A stretch of 54,083 bases of DNA from a virus (lineage: Duplodnaviria; Heunggongvirae; Uroviricota; Caudoviricetes). Positions within the stretch are counted from its first letter, which is position 1; each line of letters starts with the position of its first letter. Shown one piece after another: positions 17,372 to 37,466 of this stretch. Made by a program: the position numbers and the translations under genes. The stretch spans positions 1-54,083 of IMG/VR virus record IMGVR_UViG_2534682338_000012. One strand, written 5' to 3'. The notes beneath the pieces are model-generated. The model saw nothing but the letters and a program-made list of their open reading frames with translations. It did not search any database and was not told the DNA's origin.

Positions 17372-17722
17372 GTGCCTCCTCGTATCCCGAAAGCCTGCCG
17401 TGCTCGAGGTTGCCGTAATACCACCACAGACCCGTCAGGCTACTGCGAAAGCCACAAAAGCGAAGGCTGGAAGCAATACAAGCCAGGCCAGTCCCGACAC
17501 CAGCGCGGTTATGGTGCGAAATGGGATTTTATCCGTGAACGTGTGCTCAAGCGTGACAAAGGCCTGTGTCAGTTGTGTTTGCGTGCCGGTGTGGTGCGCG
17601 AGGCGAAAACCGTTGACCACATCATCCCTAAAGCACATGGCGGCACTGATGCCGACAGTAATCTGCAGAGTCTGTGCTGGCCGTGTCATAAGGCGAAGAC
17701 GGCCCGTGAACGGTTGAAGTAA
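17372..17722 (+). CDS. HNH endonuclease (packaging-associated)
   Basis: CxxC...H-N-H motifs (CQLCLRAG...VDHIIPKAHGGTDADSNLQSLCWPCHKAK); start uncertain (GTG). Confidence 0.8.
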   Translation: MPPRIPKACRARGCRNTTTDPSGYCESHKSEGWKQYKPGQSRHQRGYGAKWDFIRERVLKRDKGLCQLCLRAGVVREAKTVDHIIPKAHGGTDADSNLQSLCWPCHKAKTARERLK

Positions 17723-17847
17723 GAACCAGTTCCCACTGCCAGAGGGGAGGGGCGGGTCAAATCCCTGTGACCTGACGTCTTCCGGACTGCCCGCCCCATC
17801 GTTTTTTTATACCCGCGAAAAATGAAATTTAACCAGGAGTGCCGCAT

Positions 17848-18342
17848 ATGGCTGGAACGGCGGGGCGTTCCGGGCGTCGCCCCAAGCCAACGGCGCGCAA
17901 GGCGCTGGCCGGAAACCCCGGCAAGCGAGCCCTGAATAAAGATGAACCTGTTTTTACGCCCATCAAAGGTGTTGAGCCACCGGAGTGGTTCGCAGAAGAA
18001 AATCTCCCTCTCGCCACGATCATGTGGCAACTGACAACCAAAGAACTCTGCGGTCAGGGCCTGTTGTGCGTGACTGACCTCGCGGTGCTTGAGCGGTGGT
18101 GCGTGGCCTATGAGTTCTGGCGACGTGCCGTGAAAAATATTGCCATACAGGGCAACACCATCACCGGTGCAATGGGCGGCAGGGTCAAAAATCCGGAGCT
18201 GACCGCCAAAAAAGAACAGGAGTCCGAGATGAGCAGCACGGGGGCAATGCTCGGACTCGACCCCAGCAGCCGCCAGCGTCTGATTGGCCTGGCGGGGCAG
18301 AAGAAAGCCACTAACCCGTTTCTGAAAATCATCGAGTCATGA
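17848..18342 (+). CDS. terminase small subunit
   Basis: Positioned between HNH and TerL; start at MAGTAG after CAGGAG. Confidence 0.65.
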
Positions 18343-20072
18343 GCCGGAAATCTTACCCCAACGTAAATGCTGCCAATCAGTATGCCCGTGATGTTGTGCG
18401 CGGAAAGATTGTGGCCTGCCAGTTTGTGATTCAGGCCTGCCAGCGCCATCTTGATGACCTGATGGCGGAAAAAAGTAAGTCGTTTCGTTACCGCTTCGAC
18501 AAGGACCTGGCTGAACGGGCCGCCAAATTTATTCAGCTGTTGCCGCACACCAAGGGTGAGTGGGCATTCAAGAGGATGCCCATCACGCTGGAGCCGTGGC
18601 AGCTATTTGTGGTCTGCTGTGCGTTTGGCTGGGTCAATAAAGGGTCCCGGCTGCGCCGCTTCCGGGAGGTGTATACCGAAATCCCCCGTAAGAACGGCAA
18701 ATCGGCAATCTCTGCCGGTGTTGCCCTGTATTGTTTTGCCTGTGATAACGAGTTTGGCGCGGAAGTGTATTCCGGTGCCACGACAGAGAAACAGGCGTGG
18801 GAAGTCTTTCGCCCGGCGCGACTGATGTGTAAACGCACACCCATGCTGACGGAAGCGTTCGGGATTGAGGTTAACGCCTCAAACATGAATCGTCCGGAGG
18901 ATGGCGCGCGGTTTGAACCGCTGATCGGTAACCCCGGTGATGGTTCATCACCCCACTGTGCGGTGGTGGATGAATATCACGAGCACGCCACCGATGCGCT
19001 TTACACCACGATGCTTACCGGGATGGGGGCGCGACGTCAGCCATTGATGTGGGCCATTACTACTGCCGGGTACAACATTGAGGGGCCGTGCTACGACAAG
19101 CGACGGGAAGTTATCGAGATGCTCAACGGGTCGGTACCCAACGATGAACTGTTCGGGATCATCTATACCGTTGACGAAGGCGATGACTGGACCGACCCGC
19201 AGGTGCTGGAAAAAGCTAACCCGAATATTGGCGTGTCGGTTTATCGCGAATTTTTGTTAAGTCAGCAGCAGCGTGCGAAAAATAACGCCCGTCTGGCAAA
19301 CGTCTTTAAAACAAAACACCTCAATATCTGGGTGTCGGCGCGTTCGGCGTATTTCAACCTGGTGAGCTGGCAGAGCTGCGAGGATAAATCACTGACCCTT
19401 GAGCAGTTCGAGGGGCAGCCGTGCATTCTGGCCTTTGACCTGGCCCGTAAGCTGGATATGAACAGCATGGCGCGACTTTATACCCGCGAGATTGACGGTA
19501 AAACGCATTACTACAGTGTGGCCCCGCGTTTCTGGGTACCGTATGACACGGTGTACAGCGTCGAGAAAAATGAAGATCGCCGGACAGCCGAACGCTTTCA
19601 GAAATGGGTGGAAATGGGCGTCCTGACCGTTACCGATGGTGCAGAGGTGGATTATCGCTACATCCTCGAAGAGGCCAAAGCGGCGAACAAAATCAGCCCG
19701 GTCAGCGAGTCACCCATCGACCCCTTCGGGGCGACCGGGCTGTCACATGACCTTGCTGATGAAGACCTGAATCCCATCACCATCATTCAGAACTACACCA
19801 ACATGTCCGACCCGATGAAAGAGCTGGAAGCGGCAATTGAATCGGGGCGCTTTCATCATGATGGCAATCCCATCATGACCTGGTGTATCGGCAACGTGGT
19901 CGGCAAAACCATTCCGGGTAACGATGATGTGGTGAAGCCCGTCAAAGAGCAGGCGGAAAACAAAATCGATGGTGCAGTTGCGCTGATTATGGCGGTTGGC
20001 AGAGCCATGCTGTATGAGAAAGAAGACACGCTGTCCGACCACATTGAGTCCTACGGGATCCGCTCGCTTTAA
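18339..20072 (+). CDS. terminase large subunit
   Basis: 577 aa; ATPase N-terminal region and nuclease C-terminal region (acidic DxxD/DEYHE motifs), canonical position. Confidence 0.9.
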
Positions 20073-20083
20073 CTGAGGTAATT

Positions 20084-20266
20084 ATGATCATGCTGATTCT
20101 CGCGCCTCTGGTGGGCGTGCTGGGGGTGCTTTTGCTGGCGTATGGTGCCTGGCTGATTTATCCCCCGGCGGGGTTTGTTGTTGCCGGGGCGTTGTGCCTG
20201 TTCTGGTCGTGGCTGGTGGCGCGATATCTCGACCGTACACAGTCGTCTGTCGGCGGAGGTAAATAG
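20084..20266 (+). CDS. small membrane protein
   Basis: 60-aa ORF, two hydrophobic helices, fills gap between terminase and portal. Confidence 0.4.
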
Positions 20267-21507
20267 TGTTCTTTTCGGGATTATTTCAACGAAAAAGTGA
20301 CGCACCGGTGACCACGCCAGCAGAGCTGGCGGATGCTATCGGGTTGTCCTACGACACCTATACCGGAAAGCAGATCAGCAGCCAGCGGGCCATGCGACTG
20401 ACGGCGGTTTTTTCCTGTGTCAGGGTGCTGGCGGAGTCGGTCGGGATGTTGCCCTGCAACCTGTATCACCTGAACGGCAGCCTGAAGCAGAGAGCCACTG
20501 GCGAACGTCTGCATAAGCTGATCTCCACGCATCCCAATGGCTATATGACGCCGCAGGAGTTCTGGGAGCTGGTGGTCACCTGTCTGTGCCTGCGGGGAAA
20601 CTTTTACGCCTACAAAGTGAAAGCATTTGGCGAAGTGGCTGAACTGCTGCCCGTCGATCCCGGCTGTGTGGTACCGAAGCTTAACAGTAGCTGGGAGCCG
20701 GTCTATCAGGTCACATTCCCGGATGGCTCCACGGATGTACTGAGCCAGGAAGATATCTGGCATGTGCGCACGCTGACGCTGGACGGACTGGTGGGGCTGA
20801 ATCCCATCGCCTATGCCCGCGAGGCAATATCGCTGGCGGCAGCGACCGAAGAGCACGGGGCCAGACTGTTCAGCAATGGCGCGGTGACGTCGGGTGTGTT
20901 GCGTACAGAGCAGACGCTGTCAGATCAGGCTTATGAGCGCCTGAAGAAAGATTTTGAGGAGCGTCACACCGGGCTTGGCAATGCTCACCGCCCGATGATC
21001 CTTGAGATGGGGCTGGACTGGAAGTCGATGGCGCTGAACGCCGAGGACAGCCAGTTCCTGGAAACCCGCAAGTTTCAGCTTGAAGAAATCTGTCGTCTGT
21101 TCCGGGTGCCATTGCACATGGTGCAGAACACCGATCGCGCCACCTTCAACAATATCGAAGAGCTGGGGCTGGGATTTATCAACTATTCACTGGTGCCGTA
21201 TCTGACCCGCATTGAGCAGCGGATCAACACCGGACTGGTACGAAAAAGTAAGCAGGGCGTTTATTACGCCAAATTTAACGCCGGGGCCTTACTGCGCGGG
21301 GATATGAAGTCCCGTTTTGAAGCCTACGCTACCGGGATCAATTGGGGAATTTACTCTCCCAATGACTGCCGCGACCTGGAAGATATGAATCCGCGTCCCG
21401 GTGGTGATGTCTATCTCACACCGATGAACATGACCACGAAACCCTCCGATGGCAGTAAAGCCGGTAAGCAGAAGGATAACGCCAATGCAGACGAAACAAC
21501 GTCTTGA
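20266..21507 (+). CDS. portal protein (HK97 family)
   Basis: 413 aa, position and sequence character typical of HK97-type portals. Confidence 0.85.
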   Translation: MFFSGLFQRKSDAPVTTPAELADAIGLSYDTYTGKQISSQRAMRLTAVFSCVRVLAESVGMLPCNLYHLNGSLKQRATGERLHKLISTHPNGYMTPQEFWELVVTCLCLRGNFYAYKVKAFGEVAELLPVDPGCVVPKLNSSWEPVYQVTFPDGSTDVLSQEDIWHVRTLTLDGLVGLNPIAYAREAISLAAATEEHGARLFSNGAVTSGVLRTEQTLSDQAYERLKKDFEERHTGLGNAHRPMILEMGLDWKSMALNAEDSQFLETRKFQLEEICRLFRVPLHMVQNTDRATFNNIEELGLGFINYSLVPYLTRIEQRINTGLVRKSKQGVYYAKFNAGALLRGDMKSRFEAYATGINWGIYSPNDCRDLEDMNPRPGGDVYLTPMNMTTKPSDGSKAGKQKDNANADETTS

Positions 21508-22135
21508 TGTACCGCTGAGTCTGAAATCTGTCAGTGACTCCGGTGAGTTTGAAGGGTATGGCTCCGTCTTTGGTGTAAAGGACAGCCACGATGATGTGGT
21601 GATGTCAGGGGCATTTGCCGCTTCCCTGCGGGCGTGGAGTGACAGAAAAGCGTTACCTGCGCTGCTCTGGCAGCACCGCATGGATGAACCCATCGGTGTT
21701 TACACCGAAATGAAGGAAGACGATGTCGGGCTTTACGTCAGGGGACGGTTGCTTATTGATGATGATCCCCTCGCAAAACGCGCACATGCACACATGAAGG
21801 CCGGTTCGTTAACCGGCCTTTCTATTGGGTACGTCCTGAAAGACTGGGAATACGACCGGACGAAAGAAGCCTTTCTGCTGAAAGAAATCGACCTCTGGGA
21901 AGTCAGTCTGGTGACGTTCCCGTCTAACGACGAGGCGCGGATCAGCGACGTCAAGAACGCGCTGGCCCGCGGGGAAATCCCCGAACAGAAAAAAATCGAA
22001 AGAGTCCTGCGTGATGTCGGACTCTCCCGTACCCAGGCCAAAGCATTCATGGCCGGGGGCTATGGCGCACTGTCCCTGCGCGACGCTGAGGATGTGAGCT
22101 CTGCACTGAATGCACTGAAAAATCTGAACTTCTAA
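21485..22135 (+). CDS. prohead protease (HK97 family)
   Basis: Between portal and capsid; start at MQTKQRL, overlapping portal 3' end. Confidence 0.75.
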   Translation: MQTKQRLDVPLSLKSVSDSGEFEGYGSVFGVKDSHDDVVMSGAFAASLRAWSDRKALPALLWQHRMDEPIGVYTEMKEDDVGLYVRGRLLIDDDPLAKRAHAHMKAGSLTGLSIGYVLKDWEYDRTKEAFLLKEIDLWEVSLVTFPSNDEARISDVKNALARGEIPEQKKIERVLRDVGLSRTQAKAFMAGGYGALSLRDAEDVSSALNALKNLNF

Positions 22136-22149
22136 TCAGGAGAAATACG

Positions 22150-23355
22150 ATGGCGGTAGATATTAAAGATGTCGAACAGGTCGCGCAGGAGCTGCAGCAG
22201 AAGTTTGACGACTTCAAAGCAAAGAACGACAAGCGCGTGGATGCGATTGAGCAGGAAAAAGGCAAGCTTGCCGGGCAGGTGGAAACCCTGAACGGGAAAC
22301 TCAGCGAGCTGGAAAACCTCAAAAGCGATCTTGAAAAAGAGCTGCTTGAGCTGAAACGTCCGGCAGGTGGTGCGCAAAATAAACTGGCCACCGAGCATAA
22401 AGAAGCGTTTGTGGGCTTCCTGCGTAAAGGCCGTGAAGATGGTCTGCGCGATCTGGAGCGCAAGGCATTACAGGTGGGCACCGATGAAGACGGCGGCTAT
22501 GCCGTGCCGGAAGCACTGGATCGCAACATTCTCACCCTGCTGAAAGATGAAGTGGTGATGCGCCAGGAAGCCACGGTGATCACCGTTGGTGGTTCCGACT
22601 ACAAAAAACTGGTGAATCTGGGCGGCACGGCTTCCGGATGGGTTGGCGAGACTGACGCGCGCTCCCAGACTGCCACCTCAAAACTGGGCCTGATTGAACC
22701 TTTCATGGGGGAAATCTACGGTAACCCGCAGGCCACCCAGAAAATGCTGGATGATGCCTTTTTCAACGTGGAAGCATGGATCAACAGCGAGCTGGCAACC
22801 GAATTTGCCGAACAGGAAGAAATTGCCTTTACCACCGGCGATGGTACCAAGAAGCCGAAAGGGTTCCTGGCGTATGAATCCACGGATGAAACCGATAAGG
22901 TCCGGGCGTTCGGCAAACTTCAGCATATTGTATCCGGCGACGCGACGGCGGTGACCGCAGACGCCATTATCAAACTGATTTACACGCTGCGTAAGGCACA
23001 CCGCACCGGCGCGAAGTTCATGATGAACAACAATAGCCTGTTTGCCATCCGTCTGCTGAAAGACAGCGAGGGTAACTATCTGTGGCGTCCGGGGCTGGAG
23101 CTGGGGCAGCCGTCCTCTCTGGCGGGTTACGGTATCGCTGAAAACGAACAGATGCCGGATATCGCCGCTGATGCGAAAGCCATTGCATTTGGTAACTTCA
23201 AACGGGGTTACACCATCGTTGACCGTATCGGCACCCGCATTCTGCGTGACCCGTACACCAATAAACCGTTTGTCGGTTTTTATACCACCAAACGCACCGG
23301 CGGCATGCTGGTCGATTCGCAGGCCATCAAACTGCTGAAGATTGCAGTGGCGTAA
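22150..23355 (+). CDS. major capsid protein (HK97 fold) with N-terminal coiled-coil delta domain
   Basis: 401 aa; coiled-coil first ~100 aa then conserved HK97-type capsid region. Confidence 0.9.
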   Translation: MAVDIKDVEQVAQELQQKFDDFKAKNDKRVDAIEQEKGKLAGQVETLNGKLSELENLKSDLEKELLELKRPAGGAQNKLATEHKEAFVGFLRKGREDGLRDLERKALQVGTDEDGGYAVPEALDRNILTLLKDEVVMRQEATVITVGGSDYKKLVNLGGTASGWVGETDARSQTATSKLGLIEPFMGEIYGNPQATQKMLDDAFFNVEAWINSELATEFAEQEEIAFTTGDGTKKPKGFLAYESTDETDKVRAFGKLQHIVSGDATAVTADAIIKLIYTLRKAHRTGAKFMMNNNSLFAIRLLKDSEGNYLWRPGLELGQPSSLAGYGIAENEQMPDIAADAKAIAFGNFKRGYTIVDRIGTRILRDPYTNKPFVGFYTTKRTGGMLVDSQAIKLLKIAVA

Positions 23356-23403
23356 TCACTCAGGGGCGCGGAACCGCGCCCCTGTTCTGACGGGTGAAGA
23401 ATC

Positions 23404-23604
23404 ATGATCCTGAAACAAGATCTGAAATGGTCACCGGACGGTATGCGTGTTGAGGTCATTCGGGCCGGTGAGTATGACGACGGGGCGCTTCCTGCCCGGG
23501 TGCAGGAGATTGCACTTCAGGCCGGGTTAGCAGAGCGCGGAACCAGTGCAAAAAGCAGTAAAGCGACAAAAGAGAAAAAAGCCACGACCAGTAAAGAGGG
23601 CTGA
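23404..23604 (+). CDS. small hypothetical head-module protein
   Basis: 66-aa ORF between capsid and connector genes. Confidence 0.4.
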   Translation: MILKQDLKWSPDGMRVEVIRAGEYDDGALPARVQEIALQAGLAERGTSAKSSKATKEKKATTSKEG

Positions 23605-23606
23605 GT

Positions 23607-23930
23607 ATGCTTCTGACAATGGAAGAGATTAAAGCCCAACTCCGGCTGGATGAGGATTTCGATGCTGATGACCGCCATCTGCAACTGCTGGCCTGTGCGG
23701 CACAAAAGCGGACGGAAACGTATCTGAACCGGAAGCTCTATGCACCGGATGAAACCATTCCGGACAGCGATCCGGACGGGCTGCACCTGCCGGATGATAT
23801 TCGTCTGGGGATGCTGATGCTTATCAGCCATTTTTACGAAAACCGCTCGTCGGTTACGGAAGTGGAGAAACTCGACATGCCGCAGAGTTTTGGCTGGCTT
23901 GTCGGCCCGTACAGGTACTTTCCGCAATGA
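23607..23930 (+). CDS. head-tail connector protein (gp6-like)
   Basis: 107 aa, position and size. Confidence 0.65.
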   Translation: MLLTMEEIKAQLRLDEDFDADDRHLQLLACAAQKRTETYLNRKLYAPDETIPDSDPDGLHLPDDIRLGMLMLISHFYENRSSVTEVEKLDMPQSFGWLVGPYRYFPQ

Positions 23931-24337
23931 AAATTCGTCAGGCGCAGACCAGCGCAACCTACATTCTGCCGGACCCCGGTGAACTGAATAAACGCGTCCT
24001 GATCCGCCAGCGGGTGGATATGCCCGCGGATAACTTTGGCGTGGAGCCTCAATACCCGGTTACGTTCCGGACATGGGCGAAGGTTATCCAGACCAGTGCC
24101 ACCACCTGGCAGGAAACCGCGCAGACCGGGGACGCCATCACCCATTACATCACCATTCGTTACCGCCGGGGGATCACTGCTGATTATGAGGTGGTCTGTG
24201 ATGACAGTGTGTACCGGGTGAAACGTCAGCGTGATCTGAACGGGGCGCGGCGCTTTCTGCTGCTGGAGTGTACGGAGCTGGGCGAATGTAGGCAGAGTCA
24301 CGGAGGCAGCAATGGCGACTCCCTTTTTTCACGTTGA
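23927..24337 (+). CDS. head closure / head-tail adaptor protein
   Basis: 136 aa, overlapping stop-start, canonical position. Confidence 0.55.
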   Translation: MKIRQAQTSATYILPDPGELNKRVLIRQRVDMPADNFGVEPQYPVTFRTWAKVIQTSATTWQETAQTGDAITHYITIRYRRGITADYEVVCDDSVYRVKRQRDLNGARRFLLLECTELGECRQSHGGSNGDSLFSR

Positions 24338-24818
24338 TGTTCAGCAGCCCGCCGAGATGCGCTTTAACCGCGCCCGTGTCCGGCGGGCGTTTGTCACGAT
24401 TGGGCAGCGTCATATGCGTGATGCCCGTCGGCTGGTGATGCGCCGTGCGCGGTCGGCACCGGGTGAAAACCCCGGTTATCAGACCGGACGCCTGGCTCGT
24501 TCGATTGGTTATATGGTGCCGAGAGCCAGTAAAAAGCGAGCCGGTTTTATGACACGCATTGCCCCTAACCAGCGCAACGGGAAGGGGAACCGGATGATCT
24601 CTGGTGACTTCTATCCGGCGTTTCTGTTTTTTGGTGTCCGGGGAGGAGCAAAACGTCGTCGTAGTCATCATCGTGGTGCATCCGGTGGCAGCGGCTGGCG
24701 ACTGGCTCCACGTAATAACTTCATGGTGGAAACGCTTGAAAAGAACCGCAGCTGGACACGCTATTTTCTGGCGCGGGAATTGCGTAAATCACTGAAGCCG
24801 GAGCGACGACACAGATGA
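24312..24818 (+). CDS. tail-neck component (HK97 gp10-like)
   Basis: 168 aa basic protein in head-tail joining cluster. Confidence 0.5.
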   Translation: MATPFFHVDVQQPAEMRFNRARVRRAFVTIGQRHMRDARRLVMRRARSAPGENPGYQTGRLARSIGYMVPRASKKRAGFMTRIAPNQRNGKGNRMISGDFYPAFLFFGVRGGAKRRRSHHRGASGGSGWRLAPRNNFMVETLEKNRSWTRYFLARELRKSLKPERRHR

Positions 24819-25375
24819 AACTGACTCCTGTTATTGCTGCACTGCGTGCCCGTTGTCCGTATTTTGAAAACCGGGTTGCAGGCGCGGCCCAGTTCAAAAA
24901 TCTGCCGGAGGTCGGAAAGCTGAAACTCCCGGCGGCATATGTTGTACCGGGTGATGATTCTCCGGGAGAAAACAAAAGCCAGACCGACTACTGGCAGGAG
25001 CTGAAAGAGGGTTTCTCCGTGGTTGTCATACTGAGTAACGGGCGTGATGAGCGCGGTCAGTTTGCCTCGTATGATGTGGTGGACGATGTCCGGCAGATGC
25101 TCTTTAAGGCTCTGCTGGGCTGGAACCCGGAGGCGTGCGGTAACCCGATTACCTATGACGGCGGCACGCTGCTGGATCTGAATCGTCATGAGCTGATTTA
25201 TCAGTTCGATTTTTCGGTCATCAGCGAGCTGACTGAAGACGATACCCGCCAGCAGGATGATCTGAACAGTCTGGATGAACTGCAAACGCTGGCGATTGAT
25301 GTTGATTATCTCGAGCCCGGTAACGGGCCTGACGGCGATATCGAACATCACACCGAAATAACCCTTCCTTCCTGA
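24815..25375 (+). CDS. virion structural protein (tail terminator-like)
   Basis: 186 aa, immediately upstream of sheath gene. Confidence 0.5.
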   Translation: MKLTPVIAALRARCPYFENRVAGAAQFKNLPEVGKLKLPAAYVVPGDDSPGENKSQTDYWQELKEGFSVVVILSNGRDERGQFASYDVVDDVRQMLFKALLGWNPEACGNPITYDGGTLLDLNRHELIYQFDFSVISELTEDDTRQQDDLNSLDELQTLAIDVDYLEPGNGPDGDIEHHTEITLPS

Positions 25376-25537
25376 GGATCCTCATGTTTGTCAAACCTGT
25401 TAAAGGGCGGTCAGTGCCTGACCCTGCCCGCGGCGACCTTTTGCCCGCCGAAGGGCGAAATGTTGACGAGAACAACTACTGGCTGCGCCGTGAAGCAGCG
25501 GGTGATATCCGGCGCGTGAATAAAAAGGTGAACACCG

Positions 25538-27659: not shown

Positions 27660-27814
27660 CGGCTGAATACCTCACTGATCGCTTCTTTGACTGCGCCAGC
27701 TACTGGCGCATTAATCCTTTCGAATTGCTGAATATGCCGATCAGTGAAATTCCCTTGCTGGTCAGTCAGGCAAACAGGATAGAGCAGGAGAAACGCACAC
27801 ATGGCGGAATTTGA
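27626..27814 (+). CDS. tail assembly chaperone -1 frameshift extension
   Basis: -1 frame ORF overlapping chaperone 3' end; T TTT TTC slippery heptamer at ~27641-27647. Confidence 0.4.
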   Translation: MACGWFFPPGLTAEYLTDRFFDCASYWRINPFELLNMPISEIPLLVSQANRIEQEKRTHGGI

Positions 27815-29636
27815 GCTTAAGGCGTTGATCACCGGTGTCGACAGGCTTTCTCCCGCGCTGTCGAAAATGCAAAAGAAAATCCGGGGATTTAAACGCCAGG
27901 CGGAAGAAGCGTCACAGGGTGGGCTGGCGCTTGGTGGCGGACTGGCAGCGGGTCTGACGCTTTCCCTGAAATCTTATGCCGATCAGGAAAACGCCGCCAC
28001 CGGGCTGAAAGTCGCCATGATGGATGCGAACGGCGAGGTCGGAAAGAGCTTTCAGGACATCAATAAACTGGCTATTGGCCTGGGTAACCAGCTACCCGGT
28101 ACAACGGCTGATTTCCAGAACATGATGCAGATGCTGGTGCGTCAGGGGATCCCGGCAGAAAACATTCTTGGCGGTGTGGGTAAAGCGACAGCTTATCTTG
28201 CGGTACAACTGAAAAAAACACCGGAAGCGGCTGCTGAGTTTGCTGCAAAGATGCAGGATGCTACCGGAACGGCGTCAGAAGACATGATGGGGCTGTTCGA
28301 CACTATCCAGAAGGCGTTTTATCTGGGTGTTGACGATACCAACATGTTGTCCTTCTTCACTAAAACCAGCTCTGTTCTGAAGATGGTGAACAAGGACGGT
28401 CTTCAGGCTGCACAGAGCCTTGCCCCCATCAGCGTCATGATGGATCAGATGGGGATGAACGGGGAGTCGGCAGGTAACGCCCTGCGAAAAGTTATCCAGT
28501 CCGGATTAAGCGTTAAGAAAATCAGGGACGTCAATAAAATCATGGCCCGCCAGAAACTCGGGGTACAGCTCGATTTTACTGACGGCAAAGGAAGTTTTGG
28601 CGGTCTTGATAACATGTTCAGGCAACTGGCAAAGCTGCGAAAACTGACCGATGTTAAGCGAACAGGTGTACTTAAGGCAATATTTGGTGATGATGCCGAA
28701 ACCCTTCAGGTGGTCAATGCACTAATCGATAAAGGAAAGGATGGCTACGATCAGATCCAGCAGAAGATGAATAAACAGGCCAGCCTGAATAAACGTGTTC
28801 AGGCCCAGCTTGGTACGCTGTCCAACCTGTGGGAGGCAATGACGGGGACCGCAACTAACGGCCTTGCGGCTATTGGCGGCGCATTTTCTGGTGACGCCAA
28901 AAATATCACGCAATGGCTGGGGGAGTTAGGGGAAAAATTCACGAAGTTTGCGGATGAAAATCCCCGGGTTATTCGCGGCGTCGTCGGGCTTGCTGCCGGT
29001 CTTGCGATTCTGAAACTGGGATTGATGGGCGTTGGCGGTGCCATCAGTATTGTCAGCAGGATCATGTCGATGACGCCGATTGGAATGATTGCGACGGCGA
29101 TAGCCCTGGCTGCGGGATTAATTATCACTAACTGGGATGTTGTCGGACCTTATTTCAAGAAGCTCTGGGAAACCATTGGTCCTTATTTTGAGGCTGGCTG
29201 GGAACTTCTGAAGAAGGTTTTTGCCTGGTCGCCGCTGGGGATGGTAATCAATAACTGGGGACCGGTTGTTAAGTGGTTTCAGGATATGTGGGACAAACTG
29301 AAGCCAATTATTGAGTGGTTTACCGACAGTTCCGGTGACACGGTCGATGCCATTAACTCTGCGCAGTGGGGCGCGGGTGCTTATGATGCTTATGGGACGG
29401 GAATACCGGCACGGGGATACACACCTTATCAGGCGGTAGATCCGGCTCAGTCAAACAACGCCTCCGGTGCCACAGGCCCGAATCCCTTCATGATTAACAA
29501 AGCTTCTGCGCCAAAAGTTGATGGTGAGATCAAGGTCTCTTTTGTGAATTCGCCTCCGGGTATGCGGGTTATGGAAACGCGATCCAGCGGTTTTGATGTC
29601 AGCCATGATGTTGGCTATACGCGCTTTGGCAGGTAA
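27801..29636 (+). CDS. tail tape measure protein
   Basis: 611 aa, Gly/Ala-rich hydrophobic central region, canonical position. Confidence 0.85.
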   Translation: MAEFELKALITGVDRLSPALSKMQKKIRGFKRQAEEASQGGLALGGGLAAGLTLSLKSYADQENAATGLKVAMMDANGEVGKSFQDINKLAIGLGNQLPGTTADFQNMMQMLVRQGIPAENILGGVGKATAYLAVQLKKTPEAAAEFAAKMQDATGTASEDMMGLFDTIQKAFYLGVDDTNMLSFFTKTSSVLKMVNKDGLQAAQSLAPISVMMDQMGMNGESAGNALRKVIQSGLSVKKIRDVNKIMARQKLGVQLDFTDGKGSFGGLDNMFRQLAKLRKLTDVKRTGVLKAIFGDDAETLQVVNALIDKGKDGYDQIQQKMNKQASLNKRVQAQLGTLSNLWEAMTGTATNGLAAIGGAFSGDAKNITQWLGELGEKFTKFADENPRVIRGVVGLAAGLAILKLGLMGVGGAISIVSRIMSMTPIGMIATAIALAAGLIITNWDVVGPYFKKLWETIGPYFEAGWELLKKVFAWSPLGMVINNWGPVVKWFQDMWDKLKPIIEWFTDSSGDTVDAINSAQWGAGAYDAYGTGIPARGYTPYQAVDPAQSNNASGATGPNPFMINKASAPKVDGEIKVSFVNSPPGMRVMETRSSGFDVSHDVGYTRFGR

Positions 29637-29659
29637 TGAAAAATTAATCTGTTAATGAG

Positions 29660-29685
29660 TCCCACTCCGGTGGGATTTTTTATGT
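29660..29685 (+). terminator. putative terminator after tape measure gene
   Basis: CCCAC-TCCG-GTGGG hairpin followed by ATTTTTTAT. Confidence 0.4.
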
Positions 29686-29696
29686 ACGGAGTTTAT

Positions 29697-31025
29697 ATGA
29701 CGTGGAAAGACAGACTTCAGGACGCGTCATTTCGCGGTGTGCCGTTTAAGGTTGAAGAAGAAAGTGCGGGAACCGGTCGTCGTGTGGAAACGCACGAATA
29801 CCCGAACCGCGACAAACCCTATACCGAAGACCTGGGGAAAATCACTTTCCGCCCGTCCATCACAGCTTATGTGGTGGGAGATGACTGCTTTGACCAGCGC
29901 GATCGCCTGATTGACGCGCTGAATAAACCCGGTCCCGGCACGCTTGTCCATCCGACTTACGGTGAGCTGAAAGTCTGTGTTGACGGGGAAGTTCGGGTCA
30001 GCACATCGAAGAGTGAAGGGCGTATTGTCCGCTTTGACCTGAAGTTTGTCGAAGCGGGAGAACTCTCTTACCCCACTTCAGGTGCGGCGACGGCGCAGAC
30101 GCTGATGTCATCCTGTTCTGCACTGGATGACTGCATCAGTGACAGCTTCAGTGGTTTCAGTATCGATGGCGTGGCAGATTTTGTGCAGAACGACGTCGTC
30201 GGTAATGCCAGCACAATGCTTGGGTATGTTTCTGATGCGATGAAAGTGGTGGATTCTGCCGTATCGGATGCCGCCAGGCTGTTGCAGGGGGATATCTCGG
30301 TACTTCTGCCGCCACCATCGTCAGGCAAAAATTTCGTTGAGCAGGTGCAGAAAATGTGGCGTACCGGGAAACGCCTTTATGGTAACGCCAGCGACCTGGT
30401 CACCATGATCAAAACGCTTTCCGGTGTCAGCCTCGGCAGCGATCTGCAACCGCGCGGCGTCTGGAAAACGGACAGTAAAACTACCGCCACGGCGACGCAG
30501 CAGCGTAACGTGGTTGCCAGCACCCTTCGTACGACCGCAATCAGCGAAGCGGCGTATGCCGTCACACGATTGCCTGCGCCCACAACTTCCGCGGTGATGC
30601 AGAATGCCACAGTAGGGCAGTCAACAACACCCGCGCAGAGCACCGGCTGGCCTTCTGTCACGCATCCGGCACTGAACAATGCACCGGCGGTGAAAAACAC
30701 GGTTGACCTGCCAACGTGGGAAGAACTGACCGACATTCGCGACACACTGAATACGGCAATTGATAAGGAGTTGTCCCGTACAACCAGTGATGCGCTGTTT
30801 CTGGCGCTGCGCCGGGTGAAAGCAGATCTGAATGCGGATATCAACACGCGCCTTGAACAGTCTGCACGGATCATTCAGCGCACGCCGGATGAGGTTTTAC
30901 CCGCGCTGGTGCTGGCGGCGACCTGGTTTGATAACGCGGCGCGTGACGCGGACATTATCCGGCGTAATGCCATTACGCATCCCGGCTTTGTGCCGGTGAT
31001 CCCTCTGAAGGTGCCAGTGCAATGA
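29697..31025 (+). CDS. DNA circularisation protein (Mu gpN-like)
   Basis: MTWKDRLQDASFRGVPFKVEEE... N-terminus typical of Mu N family; start chosen at ATG with GGAG RBS. Confidence 0.75.
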   Translation: MTWKDRLQDASFRGVPFKVEEESAGTGRRVETHEYPNRDKPYTEDLGKITFRPSITAYVVGDDCFDQRDRLIDALNKPGPGTLVHPTYGELKVCVDGEVRVSTSKSEGRIVRFDLKFVEAGELSYPTSGAATAQTLMSSCSALDDCISDSFSGFSIDGVADFVQNDVVGNASTMLGYVSDAMKVVDSAVSDAARLLQGDISVLLPPPSSGKNFVEQVQKMWRTGKRLYGNASDLVTMIKTLSGVSLGSDLQPRGVWKTDSKTTATATQQRNVVASTLRTTAISEAAYAVTRLPAPTTSAVMQNATVGQSTTPAQSTGWPSVTHPALNNAPAVKNTVDLPTWEELTDIRDTLNTAIDKELSRTTSDALFLALRRVKADLNADINTRLEQSARIIQRTPDEVLPALVLAATWFDNAARDADIIRRNAITHPGFVPVIPLKVPVQ

Positions 31026-32101
31026 ACGACAATGTCACGCTACGGGTAAATGGCCGGGAGTGGAATGGCTGGACATCGGTGCGCATCGGTGCCGGTATTG
31101 AACGGCTGGCGCGGGATTTCAGTGTGGAGATCACTCGCCAATGGCCGGGAGATGAGGGTATCACCACGCTTCAGCCGCGCATTAAAAACGGTTCAAAAGT
31201 GGAAGTGCTGATTGGTGATGAGCTGGTGATCACCGGCTGGGTGGAGGCGACTCCCGTTCGTTACGATGCCCGTTCGGTCAGCACCGGTATTGCCGGACGT
31301 AGTCTGACGGCTGACCTGATTGACTGTGCAGCCGAACCGACACAGTTTAACGGACGCTCGCTGGTGCAGATTGCGCAGGCGCTTGCTGCGCCTTTCGGCA
31401 TTGAGGTTGTGAACAGCGGTGCGCCGTCGGGTGTTATTCCTGATGTTCAGCCTGATCACGGTGAAACGGTGATTGAGGTAATCAACAAAATACTCGGTCA
31501 GCAGCAGGCGCTGGCTTACGACGACCCGCACGGCAGGCTGGTGATTGGCGGTATTGGCTCAACGCGGGCACATACCGCGCTGGTACTTGGGGAAAACATC
31601 CTTTCCTGTGATACGGAGAAGAGTATCCGGGAGCGGTTTTCTGTTTACCAGGTGGCGGGGCAGCGTGCCGGAAACGACGATGATTTCGGTGAGGCCACCA
31701 CCACCGCGCTGCGGGCCCGCACAGAGGACGCATTTATTGCCCGTTACCGTCCGATGTATATCAGGCAGACAGGGCAGGCCACGGGGGCAGGCTGTATTGC
31801 GCGTGCTGACTTTGAAGCCCGAAAACGGGCGGCGCGGACGGATGAAACCACCTATGTGGTGCAGGGCTGGCGACAGGGTAACGGTACGCTGTGGCAGCCC
31901 AACCAGCGGGTGATTGTCTTCGATCCGGTCTGTGGTTTCGACAATACCGAACTGCTTGTCTCGGAAGTCACGTTTACTCAGGACCAGAACGGCACCCTGA
32001 CGGAAATCCGTGTCGGCCCGCCTGATGCTTATCTGCCTGAACCCGAAGCCCCCGGCGCGCGGAAAAAGAAAAAAGCCAGAGTACAGGAGGACCCGTTCTG
32101 A
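31022..32101 (+). CDS. baseplate hub protein (Mu gpP-like)
   Basis: 359 aa, canonical position after N. Confidence 0.7.
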   Translation: MNDNVTLRVNGREWNGWTSVRIGAGIERLARDFSVEITRQWPGDEGITTLQPRIKNGSKVEVLIGDELVITGWVEATPVRYDARSVSTGIAGRSLTADLIDCAAEPTQFNGRSLVQIAQALAAPFGIEVVNSGAPSGVIPDVQPDHGETVIEVINKILGQQQALAYDDPHGRLVIGGIGSTRAHTALVLGENILSCDTEKSIRERFSVYQVAGQRAGNDDDFGEATTTALRARTEDAFIARYRPMYIRQTGQATGAGCIARADFEARKRAARTDETTYVVQGWRQGNGTLWQPNQRVIVFDPVCGFDNTELLVSEVTFTQDQNGTLTEIRVGPPDAYLPEPEAPGARKKKKARVQEDPF

Positions 32102-32649
32102 TGAGGACGATTGAAGCCATGCAGCGACAACTTCTCGGCCTGATTGGGCGGGCAGTGGTGAAAAGCATCAGTGCCGCCACGAAATGTCAGACCGTGGATG
32201 TGTCCCTGATTGCCGGTGAACCCAAAGCCGGGGTTGAACATCTTGAACCCTACGGTTTTACCGCAAGGGCAAACAGCGGTGCGGAAGCGGTGGTGTTGTT
32301 TCCGGATGGCGACCGTTCTCATGCGGTGGTTGTTACGGTGTCGGACCGGCGCTACCGCCTGAAAGGGCTGCAAACGGGTGAGGTGGCTGTCTATGACGAT
32401 CAGGGGCAGTCTGTGACGCTGACCCGGGAGGGGATCGTGGTGGACGGTGCAGGGAAAACGATCACGTTTCGCAATGCACCTGAAGCACGTTTTGAAATGG
32501 ATCTGGAAGTGACCGGACAGGTGAAAGACCTGTGCGACTCCGGCGGCACCACCATGTCAGCGATGCGGCTTGCCTATAACGGGCATCGTCACAGAGAGAA
32601 CGGTCAGGGCAGTAACACCGACAAACCTGATAAAGCGATGGAGGCATGA
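32101..32649 (+). CDS. baseplate assembly protein V / spike
   Basis: 182 aa, canonical position. Confidence 0.7.
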   Translation: MRTIEAMQRQLLGLIGRAVVKSISAATKCQTVDVSLIAGEPKAGVEHLEPYGFTARANSGAEAVVLFPDGDRSHAVVVTVSDRRYRLKGLQTGEVAVYDDQGQSVTLTREGIVVDGAGKTITFRNAPEARFEMDLEVTGQVKDLCDSGGTTMSAMRLAYNGHRHRENGQGSNTDKPDKAMEA

Positions 32650-33073
32650 TGGAACTGTGGCTGACGGTGAACGGTAAACGCACCTGCGCCAGCGCACCGC
32701 TGGATCCGCTGACCCGCGCCGTGGTGATTTCCCTGTTCACCTGGCGGCGGGCGGAGCCTGATGACAATGCCGACGTCCCGATGGGATGGTGGGGGATACC
32801 TGGCCTGCGGTACAGAATGACCGTTACGGCTCCCGACTGTGGTTGCTTCAGCGCAGCAAACTGACCAATCAGCTGGTGCAGACGGTAAGGGGATATATCC
32901 GCGAATGCCTGCAATGGATGACTGATGACGGCGTGGTGTCCCGTATTGATCTGGATATCCGCCGCACCGGGATTAATGAGCTGGGTAACAGTATCACCCT
33001 CTGGCGTCGTGATGGACCAGTAATGATTTCTTTTGATGATCTGTGGAGTGCGATAACGCATGGCGGACAGTGA
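32646..33073 (+). pseudogene. baseplate protein (Mu gp46-like) interrupted by frameshift in G-run
   Basis: ORFs 32646-32864 and 32786-33073 overlap in different frames; junction at GGTGGGGGAT where one extra G would give continuous ...DVPMGWWGDTWPAVQNDRY... Confidence 0.5.
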
Positions 33074-34118
33074 ATTTCAGCGCCCGACGCTGGCAGAAAA
33101 TATCAGTATGCTCCGTAACGATTTATTCGCCAGGCTGGACGTCAGCGACACGCTCCGGCGCATGGATGAAGACGTGCGGGCAAAGGTGTATGCGGCGGCG
33201 CTGCATACGGTCTACGGTTACATCGATTATCTGGCAATGAATATGCTGCCTGACCTGTGCGATGAGTCCTGGCTGGCGCGACATGCTGCGATGAAACGGT
33301 GTCCGCGCAAGGGGGCCACGGTTGCCAGCGGGTATATGCGCTGGGAAGGTGTCAGCGATGGCCTGAAGGTGACTGCCGGGAGTGTTATTCAGCGCGATGA
33401 CCTGGTGCAGTACACGACAACTGACGATGCAATCAGCTCCGGTGGTGTCCTGCGCGTGCCGATCGCCTGCTCAAGTGCAGGTGCGGTCGGTAACGCTGAC
33501 GACGGTACGGCATTAATCCTGGTCACGCCGGTGAATGGTCTGCCGTCTTCCGGTGTGGCTGACACCCTGACAGGCGGATTTGATACTGAAGAGCTGGAAA
33601 CGTGGCGCGCCCGCGTCATTGAGCGGTATTACTGGACGCCGCAGGGCGGGGCTGACGGGGACTATGTCGTCTGGGCTAAAGAAGTGCCTGGCATTACCCG
33701 CGCATGGACATACCGACACTGGATGGGAACGGGGACTGTCGGTGTGATGATTGCCAGCAGTGACCTGATTAATCCCATTCCGGAAGAATCAACGGAAACG
33801 GCGGCAAGACAACATATCGGGCCACTGGCCCCGGTGGCAGGCTCTGATTTGTATGTGTTCAGGCCGGTGGCACATACGGTGGATTTTCATATCCGTGTGA
33901 CGCCGGACACACCGGAAATACGGGCTGCCATCACCGCGGAGTTGCGTTCGTTCCTGCTGCGTGATGGTTATCCGCAGGGAGAACTGAAGGTGTCACGTAT
34001 CAGTGAAGCGATTTCCGGTGCGAACGGGGAATACAGCCATCAGTTGCTTGCACCGGCGGACAATATCACCATTGCGAAAAATGAACTGGCGGTTCTGGGG
34101 GCGATTTCATGGACGTGA
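33060..34118 (+). CDS. baseplate J-like protein
   Basis: 352 aa, canonical position. Confidence 0.75.
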
Positions 34119-34693
34119 CAAACGATGATTACATCCGTCTGTTGTCAGCACTGTTGCCGCCCGGTCCGGCGTGGTCAGCCAGCGATCCGGCGATTGCCGG
34201 TGCGGCACCGTCATTAACCCGTGTTCATCAGCGTGCGGATGCCCTGATGCAGGAGCTGGATCCGCGCACCACCACCGAACTGATAAACCGCTGGGAGCGT
34301 CTGTGCGGCCTGCCGGATGAATGTATTCCGGCAGGGACGCAGACCCTTCGCCAGCGTCAGCAACGGCTGGATGCGAAGGTTAACCTGGCGGGCGGCATCA
34401 ATGAGGATTTTTACCTTGCACAGCTTGCTGCCCTGGGCAGACCAGACGCCACCATCACGCGATACGACAAAAGCACGTTCACCTGCTCATCTGCCTGTAT
34501 TGACGCGGTGAATGCGCCGGAATGGCGGTATTACTGGCAGGTCAACATGCCAGCCGCCACCAACACCACCTGGATGACATGTGGCGATCCCTGTGATTCC
34601 GCGCTGCGCTTCTGGGGGGACACCGTTGTCGAGTGTGTTCTTAACAAACTCTGCCCGTCGCATACCTATGTGATTTTTAAATATCCGGAGTAA
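34109..34693 (+). CDS. tail protein (DUF2313/YmfQ-like)
   Basis: 194 aa, precedes tail fibre as in e14/Mu-type tails. Confidence 0.65.
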
Positions 34694-34696
34694 TCC

Positions 34697-35344
34697 ATGC
34701 ATCGTATAGACACGAAAACCGCGCAGAAGGATAAGTTCGGCGCGGGTAAGAACGGTTTTACCCGTGGTAACCCCCAGACCGGCACGCCTGCCACCGATCT
34801 GGATGATGACTACTTTGACATGTTGCAGGAGGAGCTTTGCAGCGTTGTGGAGGCATCCGGTGCCAGCCTGGAGAAGGGGCGGCATGACCAGCTGCTTACC
34901 GCGCTTCGTGCGCTGCTGTTAAGCCGCAAGAATCCGTTTGGCGATATCAAATCGGATGGCACGGTGAAAACAGCTCTCGAAAACCTTGGTTTGGGAGAAG
35001 CGGCAAAGAGGAATGTGGGGACAGGAGAAAATCAGGTACCGGATATGAACAGCTTTGGTAACTCATTGACCGCCAATGGATACCAGAAATTACCTGGGGG
35101 GATGATTATTCAATGGGGGAGTTTTTCTGTCTCACCAACCGGAGGAAGTGTTGGAACAGTTGATATAACATTACCTGTAGCTTTCCCTGCTGCTTGTCGT
35201 TCGGTAAACGCTCTTATTTCAACTAATGATCCTTCTGCCCGTTCTGTGGGCTTTGATATTGGAAGTACCAACAGAACTAAAATCAGATTTACTTACACTT
35301 CTGCTACAACAAATTCAATTTACTGGATGGCTGTGGGGTATTAA
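34697..35344 (+). CDS. tail fibre protein (constant N-terminus fused to variable segment A)
   Basis: [22 protein letters not shown]... conserved fibre N-terminus; crossover site lies inside the gene. Confidence 0.75.
34974..34999. repeat. left inversion crossover site (gix/pix-like)
   Basis: CTCTCGAAAACCTTGGTTTGGGAGAA; inverted copy at ~36832-36857. Confidence 0.55.
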
Positions 35345-35346
35345 CT

Positions 35347-35778
35347 ATGGAAAAGACATATTATTTTAATCCCTCTGATTCGGGATTTTATATTTCACCA
35401 GATAGCCAAACCATTCCTGAGAACGCTACGAAAATAAACTTTACTATTTATTCTGAGTTCGCAGGAGTTGCATGGCCTGATGGTAAAATACTTGGTTCAG
35501 ATAAAAATGGTTTTCCAGCATGGCAGGATGCGCCACCACTTACAAGCGAAGAATTAATCTCAATCGCTGAATCAAATAAACAGCGATTAGTTAATCAGGC
35601 CAACGAATACATGAACAGTAAACAATGGCCTGGTAAAGCGGCGATTGGTCGTCTGAAAGGTGAGGAACTGGCGCAATATAATTTGTGGCTGGATTATCTG
35701 GACGCACTGGAACTGGTCGATACTTCCAGTGCGCCAGATATTGAATGGCCTACTCCTCCGGCAGTTCAGGCCAGATGA
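35347..35778 (+). CDS. tail fibre assembly protein (for variant A)
   Basis: 143 aa, C-terminal LWLDYLDALELVDTSSAPDIEWPTPP typical of Tfa chaperones. Confidence 0.7.
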   Translation: MEKTYYFNPSDSGFYISPDSQTIPENATKINFTIYSEFAGVAWPDGKILGSDKNGFPAWQDAPPLTSEELISIAESNKQRLVNQANEYMNSKQWPGKAAIGRLKGEELAQYNLWLDYLDALELVDTSSAPDIEWPTPPAVQAR

Positions 35779-36352
35779 CATCCGGCGCGGTACTGGTATC
35801 TGTTGCCGTCACCGCGTCAATGTAATCCAGCACAGTGTTAAGTCGGGTGGTCTCTGCCTGCATCAGCTTCCGCCCGGCCTGCAATTTCAGTTGAATCAGA
35901 CTAATGGAAGCCATTGCAGTATCAATCAGTGACTGACGTTGTGCTTCTGCCGCGTCTACTGCGGCGCTATGCTGTGTCTCAGTATCCGTCACCCATTTCT
36001 CACCATCCCATTTATCGTATGGCGTTAACGGGGCGATAGTGGTTGTTTTTTCGGGGTAATCACCCGGAGTTGTGATTTCTTTGGCGTCTCCCGTTTCGGT
36101 GTTATAGACGATTTCACCGCGATGGTCTGGTACATATTCCCATGAGTTAAAATCTGCAGAGCGGCAGATTGCATAACCAGCTTTGTAGGTGCCTGGAGCA
36201 TCTAAACAGGAATAAGCCGGAATGCCGACACCAACAGCAAGATATTCAGTTGAAGCTGAAATATACTCCCGACTCATGACGTCAAAGTTATAAACAGTAA
36301 TTTCTCCTGCCATAGTGGCAATTAATTCACTGTTTAATTCTGCGTTATTCAT
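35750..36352 (-). CDS. tail fibre assembly protein (for variant B)
   Basis: 200 aa, C-terminal LNTVLDYIDAVTATDTSTAPDVIWPELP Tfa signature, opposite strand within invertible segment. Confidence 0.7.
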   Translation of the reverse strand: MNNAELNSELIATMAGEITVYNFDVMSREYISASTEYLAVGVGIPAYSCLDAPGTYKAGYAICRSADFNSWEYVPDHRGEIVYNTETGDAKEITTPGDYPEKTTTIAPLTPYDKWDGEKWVTDTETQHSAAVDAAEAQRQSLIDTAMASISLIQLKLQAGRKLMQAETTRLNTVLDYIDAVTATDTSTAPDVIWPELPEE

Positions 36353-36856
36353 TATGCAGCCCTCACAATATAGTTAAAAGCGACATTTCGTGGGCGTGTT
36401 TCATTCGCACCTGCAGGTTTAGTCGTTGCCGCAACAACACTACCCTCTGTAATAGCCGGGTTGGGAATTGGGTAATTATCGAAGTCAATGGCTGGAGACA
36501 GGGGCGTGATTTGTTTTAAAATCGTGGTGCCTGTAAAACTTCCCAGAGTCTGGTCGTTAGTTCGTGAAGTCCAGACTCCCCAATAGTGGTTATGACTGAC
36601 AATCGCACCGTCCTGAAGCGTTAATAATCCCCTTCCGTTATCCACTCCACGTCCGTCATCCCAGCCACGAATAAACTCACCGCGTAAATCAGGTAATTTA
36701 TTTGTCGGATAAGCCTTTGCCAGTTCCGGGTATTCTTCAGCAGAAAAAGCTGCTCCGTTGCATTTCAGCCAGCCTGTTGGCGGAGTGGCTGAAGGCCACG
36801 GAACAGGCACACCAACGGGTAATGCTGAGCCTTCTCCCAAACCAACGTTTATGAAA
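36352..36856 (-). CDS. alternative tail fibre C-terminal segment (variant B, currently unfused)
   Basis: Minus-strand ORF ending at crossover site; would fuse to fibre N-terminus after inversion. Confidence 0.6.
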
Positions 36857-36857
36857 A
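36832..36857. repeat. right inversion crossover site
   Basis: TTCTCCCAAACCAACGTTTATGAAAA, inverted relative to left site (shared TTCTCCCAAACCAA core). Confidence 0.55.
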
Positions 36858-36911
36858 TGCAGAAATAACGAGCAAATGGCATCATTCCTGCTTTTGTCAG
36901 GGAGATCTACC

Positions 36912-37466
36912 ATGCTTATTGGCTATGTACGTGTGTCAACAAATGACCAGAACACAGATCTACAACGTAATGCGCTGAACTGTGCAGGATGCGAGCTGAT
37001 TTTTGAAGACAAGATAAGCGGTACAAAGTCCGAAAGGCCGGGACTGAAAAAACTGCTCAGGACATTATCGGCAGGTGATACGCTGGTGGTCTGGAAACTG
37101 GACCGACTGGGGCGCAGTATGCGGCATCTTGTCGTGCTGGTGGAGGAGTTGCGCGAACGAGGCATCAACTTTCGTAGTCTGACGGATTCAATTGATACCA
37201 GTACCCCAATGGGGCGCTTTTTCTTTCATGTGATGGGTGCCCTGGCTGAAATGGAGCGTGAACTGATTGTTGAAAGAACAAAAGCTGGACTGGAAGCTGC
37301 TCGCGCACAGGGACGAATTGGTGGACGTCGTCCCAAACTTGCACCAGAACAATGGGCGCAGGCCGGGCGATTAATTGCATCAGGCGTTCCTCGCCAGAAG
37401 GTGGCGATCATCTATGATGTTGGTATATCGACACTGTATAAGAAGTTTCCGGTCGGAGATAAATGA
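36912..37466 (+). CDS. pin: serine DNA invertase (Pin/Gin/Hin family)
   Basis: MLIGYVRVSTNDQNTDLQ... catalytic Ser in YVRVST, C-terminal HTH; immediately right of invertible segment. Confidence 0.9.
   Translation: MLIGYVRVSTNDQNTDLQRNALNCAGCELIFEDKISGTKSERPGLKKLLRTLSAGDTLVVWKLDRLGRSMRHLVVLVEELRERGINFRSLTDSIDTSTPMGRFFFHVMGALAEMERELIVERTKAGLEAARAQGRIGGRRPKLAPEQWAQAGRLIASGVPRQKVAIIYDVGISTLYKKFPVGDK

Follow-up and report, generated by a model that had tools for sequence, protein, structure and literature searches.

We analysed a stretch of 54,083 nucleotides from the chromosome of E. coli (IMG/VR virus record IMGVR_UViG_2534682338_000012; this whole stretch is called the window below) and conclude, with a probability of about 0.96, that positions 17372-37466 form the gene block for packaging, head, tail and fibres in a temperate phage of 40.5 kb that is inserted in the tRNA gene thrW. 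The phage is SfV-like, i.e., of the type of SfII, SfI, SfIV and e14. Its combination of an HK97 head with a Mu tail is that of a long-established and widespread lineage, not of a recent hybrid, and this mosaic architecture is already known, the SfV-like class having been named in the literature (PMC3603311, PMC3636060, PMC3851460).

The window opens with proA (1-1254), followed by thrW, which encodes tRNA-Thr(CGT), at 1369-1444. The two copies of a 47-bp direct repeat delimit a prophage of about 40.5 kb (1399-41856). The first 46 nt of the repeat are letter for letter the 46-bp attachment core published for SfI, SfII, SfV and SfX (PMC3636060). Because the repeats enclose everything between them, the block at 17372-37466 lies inside one att-bounded prophage.

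Head and tail genes compared with HK97 and Mu

A first-pass annotation had described this block as an HK97 series of genes for an HNH endonuclease, the small and large terminase subunits (TerS and TerL), portal, protease and capsid, joined to a tail that follows Mu and e14. Every major open reading frame (ORF) between 17315 and 37466 was scanned with Pfam (Table 1). The scans recovered the entire head series, each gene where it had been placed, and together with tblastn they recovered the sheath, the tube, the DNA circularisation protein, baseplate V/J and the Pin-controlled fibres. The borders proved exact as well: 17372 corresponds to the start assigned to HNH in SfII, and pin ends at 37466.

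The window was compared with HK97 and Mu using tblastn in both directions, without sum statistics and at E<=1e-3; tblastx was dropped because short linked high-scoring segment pairs gave meaningless summed E-values. The HNH endonuclease, TerL, portal, protease and capsid protein matched HK97 only, at 26-36% identity, and none of them matched Mu; TerS was the one member of the series lacking an HK97 match. Conversely, the gp38-like protein, the sheath, the gpN- and gpP-like proteins and the homologues of gp45 to gp48 matched Mu only, at 28-42% identity, and none matched HK97. The invertase likewise matched Mu (Gin) and not HK97. At the same threshold, the window contained no match to the terminase, portal, gp30, protease or capsid of Mu, to Mu transposase A, Mu B or the Mu c repressor, or to the major tail protein, the tape measure, M, L, K or J of HK97. 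The HK97 proteins cI, Q, RusA, endolysin and Rz do match the window. Since this homology exists at the level of entire genes, chance is of no concern for the clean break between head and tail.

The packaging and head genes follow the HK97 order, from HNH through cos, TerS, TerL, portal and S78 protease to the PF05065 capsid gene. The HNH gene adjoins cos, as it does in HK97. The 10-nt cohesive end that was determined experimentally for SfI (PMC3636060) occurs just once, and exactly, in the window; this sequence, TGCCCGCCCC, is the predicted cos. As in HK97, there is no separate scaffold gene, none being found between the end of the protease gene (22135) and the start of the capsid gene (22150). 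The capsid Pfam domain begins at residue 115, after a coiled-coil-like N-terminus that can be read as a putative delta-like domain. The families of TerL, portal, protease and capsid are common to both phages, as are the PHROGs of the connector proteins Ad1 and Hc1. The prophage differs from HK97 in that its head proteins are only 26-36% identical at the amino acid level, TerS is not detectably related, and the non-contractile tail genes are absent.

Downstream, a contractile-tail set of sheath, tube and Mu-type baseplate is present instead of a lambda-type tail, and the Mu order is kept (gp38, L, M, gp41, gp42, N, P, gp45-48, S/U, gin). Colinear protein homologues were found for gp38, L, N, P, gp45, gp46, gp47 and gp48. 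Direct similarity to Mu was not the basis for placing the tube, chaperone and tape measure, which lie between the sheath and gpN homologues; they were recognised by their Pfam families and their position. Both phages also have an invertible fibre segment of the Gin type; however, it comprises 3 kb in Mu and 1.9 kb (the e14 P type) in the prophage, and the prophage fibres are much shorter. In contrast to Mu, the prophage has neither transposase A/B nor the c repressor nor Mu head genes. The genes that define a transposable phage (A, B and c) are absent, and att sites are present together with a tyrosine recombinase that integrates at a tRNA gene.

The head and tail genes had been described as embedded in a lambda/P22-type backbone. 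The gene content (int/xis, cI/cro/cII, Q and S-R-Rz) confirms that the predicted regulatory backbone is lambdoid, and the genome plan of int-xis, immunity, replication, Q and S-R-Rz, followed by the virion genes, is colinear with SfII and SfV. Integrase and excisionase are 99% and 98% identical to Int and Xis of SfII at the amino acid level, and the immunity region (6740-8300) is 97% identical to ymfK-ymfT-ymfL of e14. Further lambdoid genes identified by Pfam encode an O-like replication protein and Dam, and the RusA protein matches RusA of HK97.

Counted from the head genes, the DUF2635/gp38-like ORF at 25384 is the first to have a counterpart in Mu. The joint of the two lineages can be bracketed only to 24312-25375, about 1 kb at the head-tail docking interface, a sensible position because heads and tails assemble separately. 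That head and tail match different reference phages, and that tail clusters of the SfV type have become domesticated tailocins in Pseudomonas (PMC4684702), might suggest two adjacent elements, namely the remnant of an HK97-like siphovirus next to either a Mu-like prophage or a cluster for an R-type tailocin. Nevertheless, all of these genes lie between one and the same pair of att repeats. Isolated phages with myovirus particles (PMC3851460) match the entire block colinearly at 97%, and neither a Mu transposase nor Mu head genes nor HK97 tail genes are present in the window. Moreover, the ORFs across the joint (24312-25554) share one strand and lie close together, and stop codons overlap with start codons. 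We regard two adjacent elements as extremely improbable, and both this reading and the tailocin reading, already contradicted by the evidence, were rejected.

Close relatives and the age of the combination

Comparison of the whole prophage with reference genomes, which had been proposed as a check, identified the SfV-like type: positions 17735-35048 are 97.3% identical to SfII (NC_021857) at the nucleotide level, and about 97% identity is typical of the Sf phages over this span. In a megablast search of phage records with the 20-kb block as query, SfII, SfI (NC_027339), SfIV (NC_022749), SfV (NC_003444) and the E. coli phage vB_EcoM-689R6 matched at 96.8-97.4% over 67-88% of its length; across the virion genes, identity to SfV, SfII, SfI and SfIV was 96.2-97.4%. 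At the protein level, 22 of the 24 SfII virion proteins were matched over their full length at 92.9-100% amino acid identity; the fibre reached 62.8%, and gp46 was matched in two pieces. The Sf phages and the prophage have in common the gene order from HNH/cos to the constant region of the fibre, the att core at thrW, the integrase, cos, the lambdoid early and late regions and the left inversion site. In contrast to the prophage, the Sf phages have gtrABC next to attP, in some cases accompanied by an acyltransferase gene, contain no invertase and no second fibre set, and have an intact gp46. SfV additionally carries a divergent portal-protease-capsid allele, with no match over 20011-23606 and a coverage of 67%; nevertheless, this allele still belongs to the HK97 family (PMC3851460).

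The first-pass annotation had stated that such hybrids exist, and this was borne out by SfII, SfI, SfIV and SfV, which have been isolated and imaged. The head of SfIV is isometric and measures about 55 nm, its contractile tail measures about 101 nm, and the phage resembles SfV, SfII and SfI (PMC3851460). Contractile-tailed particles have been imaged for all four phages (PMC3851460); for the prophage, such particles are predicted from its genes. The specific combination, which had been called worth recording, is not new: close full-length relatives exist among isolated phages and in hundreds of E. coli genomes, a finding that the annotation itself had said would lower the novelty. The SfV genome paper of Allison et al. 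2002 reportedly described a "lambda-like phage with a contractile tail" (as cited in PMC3603311 and PMC3851460). Bobay et al., who refer to Allison 2002 and Mmolawa 2003, define the "SfV-like" phages as Myoviridae that are lambdoid (PMC3603311).

Among 5426 complete E. coli genomes, 735 (about 1 in 7) contain 80% or more of the 20-kb block; in several, all of it is present at 98-98.6% identity. Prophages of M8, A2, A17 and many other E. coli include the whole block with the invertible fibres and pin (98-98.6% over 99-100%). The closest relative is that of M8 (NZ_CP010191), in which the tail end, the fibres, pinE and the cargo island (99.8%) are the same; it differs in having an intact gp46 and no P4-like satellite downstream of attR.

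The e14 element of E. coli K-12 is 97% identical in three blocks, which comprise the immunity region, the 3' end of the TerL gene with ymfR and the 5' end of the portal gene, and jayE/ymfQ with the 5' end of stfP. It is 86% and 93% identical across two blocks of the tfaE-stfE-pinE region, and its inversion sites are the same. The e14-aligned spans of the window (6591-8878, 18936-20673, 33331-35007 and 35611-37467) are separated by deletions. The e14 breakpoints fuse a replication gene to the TerL gene (ymfN) and the 5' end of the portal gene to Baseplate_J (beeE/jayE). These deletions identify e14 as a remnant of the same phage type and not as a second source of genes. Unlike the prophage, e14 lacks most of the genes for head and tail, sits in icd instead of thrW, and carries lit and mcrA as cargo. 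Salmonella phage ST64B, which has been cited together with SfV as defining the lambdoid Myoviridae (PMC3603311), is 83.6% identical at the nucleotide level from the head genes through the sheath gene; the match ends after about 10 kb of the block.

Could the hybrid have arisen recently in the source strain, by recombination of a resident lambdoid prophage with a Mu-like phage? Lambdoid phages are highly mosaic, and the heads differ between SfV and SfII/SfI/SfIV while the tails are common, as reflected in the 67% coverage of SfV (PMC3851460). However, the same head-tail joint is present in Shigella phages, ST64B, e14 and hundreds of E. coli genomes, and the identity of the tail proteins to their Mu counterparts is no more than 28-42%, which argues that the junction is ancient. 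A recent origin is thus contradicted by the distribution of the joint; we give it hardly any credence, and it was rejected.

Several points nevertheless weigh against the assignment to an SfV-like phage with an HK97-type head. The HK97 cross-link residues K169, N356 and E363 did not align with conserved residues in a four-sequence MAFFT alignment at about 26% identity, which is of low confidence and unreliable in these loops; accordingly, "HK97-type" here denotes gene family and gene order, not chainmail chemistry. At the joint, Neck1 and the tail terminator share no PHROG with their HK97 or Mu counterparts, and pairwise BLASTP against the HK97 gp10-family protein, Mu gp36 and Mu gp37 was not significant (E 0.5-1.5), so that neither parent lineage can be assigned to them. 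The gp46-like gene is frameshifted, so this prophage copy may make no tails. Finally, what is said of particles, induction and inversion in this copy is read from its genes.

The frameshift leads to the one alternative with some weight, namely that the prophage is of the same type but a defective, cryptic copy, in which the broken gp46-like wedge blocks tail formation at an early stage of the decay that gave rise to e14. The gp46-like gene is split by the loss of one nucleotide in a run of G (G5 at 32791-32795; G6 in relatives), and of the 1093 E. coli records that cover this run, 1092 have G6 and a single one has G5. A second one-nucleotide loss (A7 to A6, around 11556-11561) splits the KilA-N gene at 11459-12264, and e14 demonstrates that the lineage decays in place. 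However, each lesion is the loss of a single base from a homopolymer, as errors of long-read sequencing or pyrosequencing usually produce, and this pattern suggests that sequencing errors are involved. In addition, the other 22 SfII-matched virion ORFs are full length, 21 of them with 92.9-100% and the fibre with 62.8% amino acid identity, and att sites, cos and int are intact. Real decay of the two genes is possible but doubtful, and we consider a defective copy, although conceivable, rather unlikely.

Predicted particle assembly and the invertible fibre switch

The course of particle formation outlined here for the SfV-like phage is taken from family knowledge and isolated relatives. After induction, antitermination by Q would drive one long late operon. 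HNH would act with TerS and TerL to cut concatemers at cos and to package the DNA into an HK97-family prohead, built of portal, S78 protease and capsid protein, with the N-terminal domain of the capsid protein itself serving as scaffold. Ad1 and Hc1 would then close the head. The Mu-type contractile tail would be assembled separately from hub (gpP-, gp45- and gpN-like proteins), wedge (gp46, gp47 and gp48 homologues), tube, sheath and terminator, with the tape measure and a chaperone that is made by -1 frameshifting. Docking to the head would occur via the Neck1/terminator pair, i.e., at the lineage joint. The predicted frameshift has a plausible site: the chaperone gene ends in GGT TTT TTC, as read from the sequence, with the canonical slippery heptamer T TTT TTC at 27641-27647, and this is the usual G/GT-type arrangement.

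At the end of the block, the layout of a switch of the Din family (Gin/Pin/Cin/Hin) can be recognised, with a serine invertase, two inverted 26-bp sites (pix) and alternative fibre ends with their chaperones. Pin is 79% identical to Mu Gin at the amino acid level, and its gene is 93% identical to e14 pinE at the nucleotide level. The pix sites contain an AAACC-NN-GGTTT core in common with the gix sites of Mu, which are located at the annotated G-segment boundaries. LGLGE is encoded at both pix junctions, so inversion would fuse the constant part of about 101 amino acids in frame to the Collar-domain end; it would also turn the second chaperone gene into sense orientation. Pin would thus invert the 1.87-kb segment between the pix sites and join one constant fibre N-terminus to either receptor-binding end, each with its own chaperone, which would result in a host-range switch. 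The silent fibre end and chaperone are close to Stf and Tfa of HK97, a siphovirus, which indicates that receptor-binding cassettes cross tail types.

The region 33060-34693 immediately upstream of the fibre gene is 97% identical to e14 jayE-ymfQ, and the identity to SfII ends within the fibre gene, at 35048. The fibre genes of SfII (17255-17280) and SfV (16949-16974) each contain a perfect copy of the left pix site, yet these phages have no invertase and no second site. The orphan sites suggest that both descend from an ancestor with an invertible segment.

Cargo, inserted genes and the neighbouring satellite

Between pin and attR, a defence-gene cargo (37573-41337) occupies the position of gtrABC in the Sf phages. 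Neither gtrABC nor oac is found next to attP; as this region carries other genes, the prophage is SfV-like but not a serotype converter. The cargo comprises a full-length PD-T4-3 homologue, a kinase that resembles PD-T4-6/MAD6 in its kinase domain only, its C-terminal half (about residues 265-478) matching nothing, and a 205-amino-acid protein without a family match in Pfam, PHROGs, PADLOC or NCBIfam. All three genes together were found in only 3 of 5426 E. coli genomes. It is a long shot that the cassette was exchanged for a rare three-gene island, perhaps one new anti-phage unit, and that the G run in gp46 is perhaps a slippage-prone on/off switch of the tail.

Two further genes flank the lysis genes. 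Stx phages carry their toxin genes between Q and holin, and at this position the prophage contains a moron for a 261-amino-acid protein (14233-15018, plus strand; local GC content about 42%) that has no match in Pfam, PADLOC or NCBIfam. Between Rz and HNH/cos lies the gene of a 287-amino-acid DUF6236 protein (16432-17295; phrog_23128), again of low GC content (about 42-44%). It is a moron-like insertion; SfII and SfV lack a DUF6236 gene at this position.

A P4-like satellite follows directly after attR (41857-54083), in tandem with the prophage at thrW, and positions 41810-54083 are 100% identical to E. coli VG12A2. The SMEK and PDC-M68B genes lie after the Psu-family genes in a stretch of 30-41% GC, which looks like the defence hotspot of the satellite.

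Table 1. Features of the prophage and the adjacent satellite, in window coordinates (alternative starts separated by a slash)
Feature	Position	Strand	Match or remark
attL	1399-1445	+	47-bp exact direct repeat, 3' part of thrW
Integrase	1459-2622	-	Pfam Phage_integrase
Excisionase	2499-2933	-	Pfam HTH_17
cI-like S24 repressor	6740-7414	-	Pfam; matches HK97 cI
cro-like gene	7481-7705	+
cII/YmfL-like gene (cII/CP76 protein)	7749-8300	+
Q antiterminator	13278-14030	+	HK97 Q match 34%
Holin, lambda-S-type	15108-15434	+
Endolysin	15438-15914	+	89% to HK97 endolysin
Rz	15898-16359	+	73% to HK97 Rz
HNH endonuclease	17315/17372-17722	+	PF01844, E 2.7e-16; matches HK97 gp74 region
cos (predicted)	17788-17797	+	TGCCCGCCCC, between HNH and TerS
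Terminase small subunit	17839/17848-18342	+	Terminase_4
Terminase large subunit (ATPase and nuclease)	18339-20072	+	matches HK97 gp2
60-aa (amino acid) membrane protein, YmfR-like, between TerL and portal	20084-20266	+	phrog_502; SfII_03
Portal	20266-21507	+	PF04860; HK97 gp3 match 32%
Prohead protease	21449/21485-22135	+	Peptidase_S78; HK97 gp4 match 36%
Major capsid protein	22150-23355	+	PF05065; HK97 gp5 match 26%
66-aa protein	23404-23604	+
Head-tail adaptor Ad1 (gp6-like connector)	23607-23930	+	phrog_40, as HK97 gp6
Head closure/completion protein Hc1	23927-24337	+	phrog_25, as HK97 gp7
Neck1/tail-completion protein	24312-24818	+	phrog_879
Tail terminator	24815-25375	+	phrog_209/PF23840
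DUF2635, Mu gp38-like	25384-25554	+	Mu gp38 match 42%
Tail sheath	25538-27034	+	Mu gpL match 36%
Tail tube	27034-27390	+	Pfam
Tail assembly chaperone	27390-27659	+	Phage_TAC_7, PF10109
Chaperone -1 frame extension	to 27814	+	phrog_32181
Tape measure	27801-29636	+	Pfam
DNA circularisation protein, Mu gpN-like	29655-31025	+	DNA_circ_N
Mu gpP-like hub	31022-32101	+	Pfam and Mu match
Mu gp45-like spike	32101-32649	+	Mu Gp45 Pfam and Mu match
Mu gp46-like baseplate wedge, split	32646-33073	+	GP46 Pfam
Mu gp47/Baseplate_J	33060-34118	+	Pfam and Mu match
Mu gp48-like	34109-34693	+	Pfam and Mu match
Expressed fibre	34697-35344	+	constant to about aa 101, then Gp53-like C end
Left inversion site (pix), in fibre gene	34975-35000	-	26/26 identical to e14 site
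Expressed fibre chaperone	35347-35778	+	Caudo_TAP
Silent chaperone	35750-36352	-	Caudo_TAP; 87% aa to HK97 Tfa
Silent fibre C end, Collar domain	ORF 36352-36885, fibre end to about 36831	-	56% aa to HK97 Stf
Right inversion site (pix)	36832-36857	+	identical to e14 right site
Pin serine invertase, 184 aa from ATG 36912	36912-37466	+	Resolvase and HTH_7
PD-T4-3 GIY-YIG protein, full-length homologue	37573-38349	-	E 1e-128
Ser/Thr kinase, 478 aa	38927-40363	+	PD-T4-6/MAD6 kinase likeness, kinase domain only
205-aa protein	40720-41337	+
attR	41810-41856	+	second 47-bp copy; SfV/SfII attP-side sequence around it at 41685-41856
P4-type integrase	41951-43210
Toprim/DUF927 primase	46006-48678
Two Psu-family genes	49079-50370
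SMEK-domain protein	51178-52137		PADLOC Aga-like N-terminal match
PDC-M68B homologue	52368 to window end

As a discovery, the block carries little weight, as prophages of this type are among the most common in E. coli. Its value is one of annotation: the region can be entered as a thrW-integrated, SfV-like prophage for which the att, cos and pix sites are given exactly and a frameshifted chaperone is predicted.

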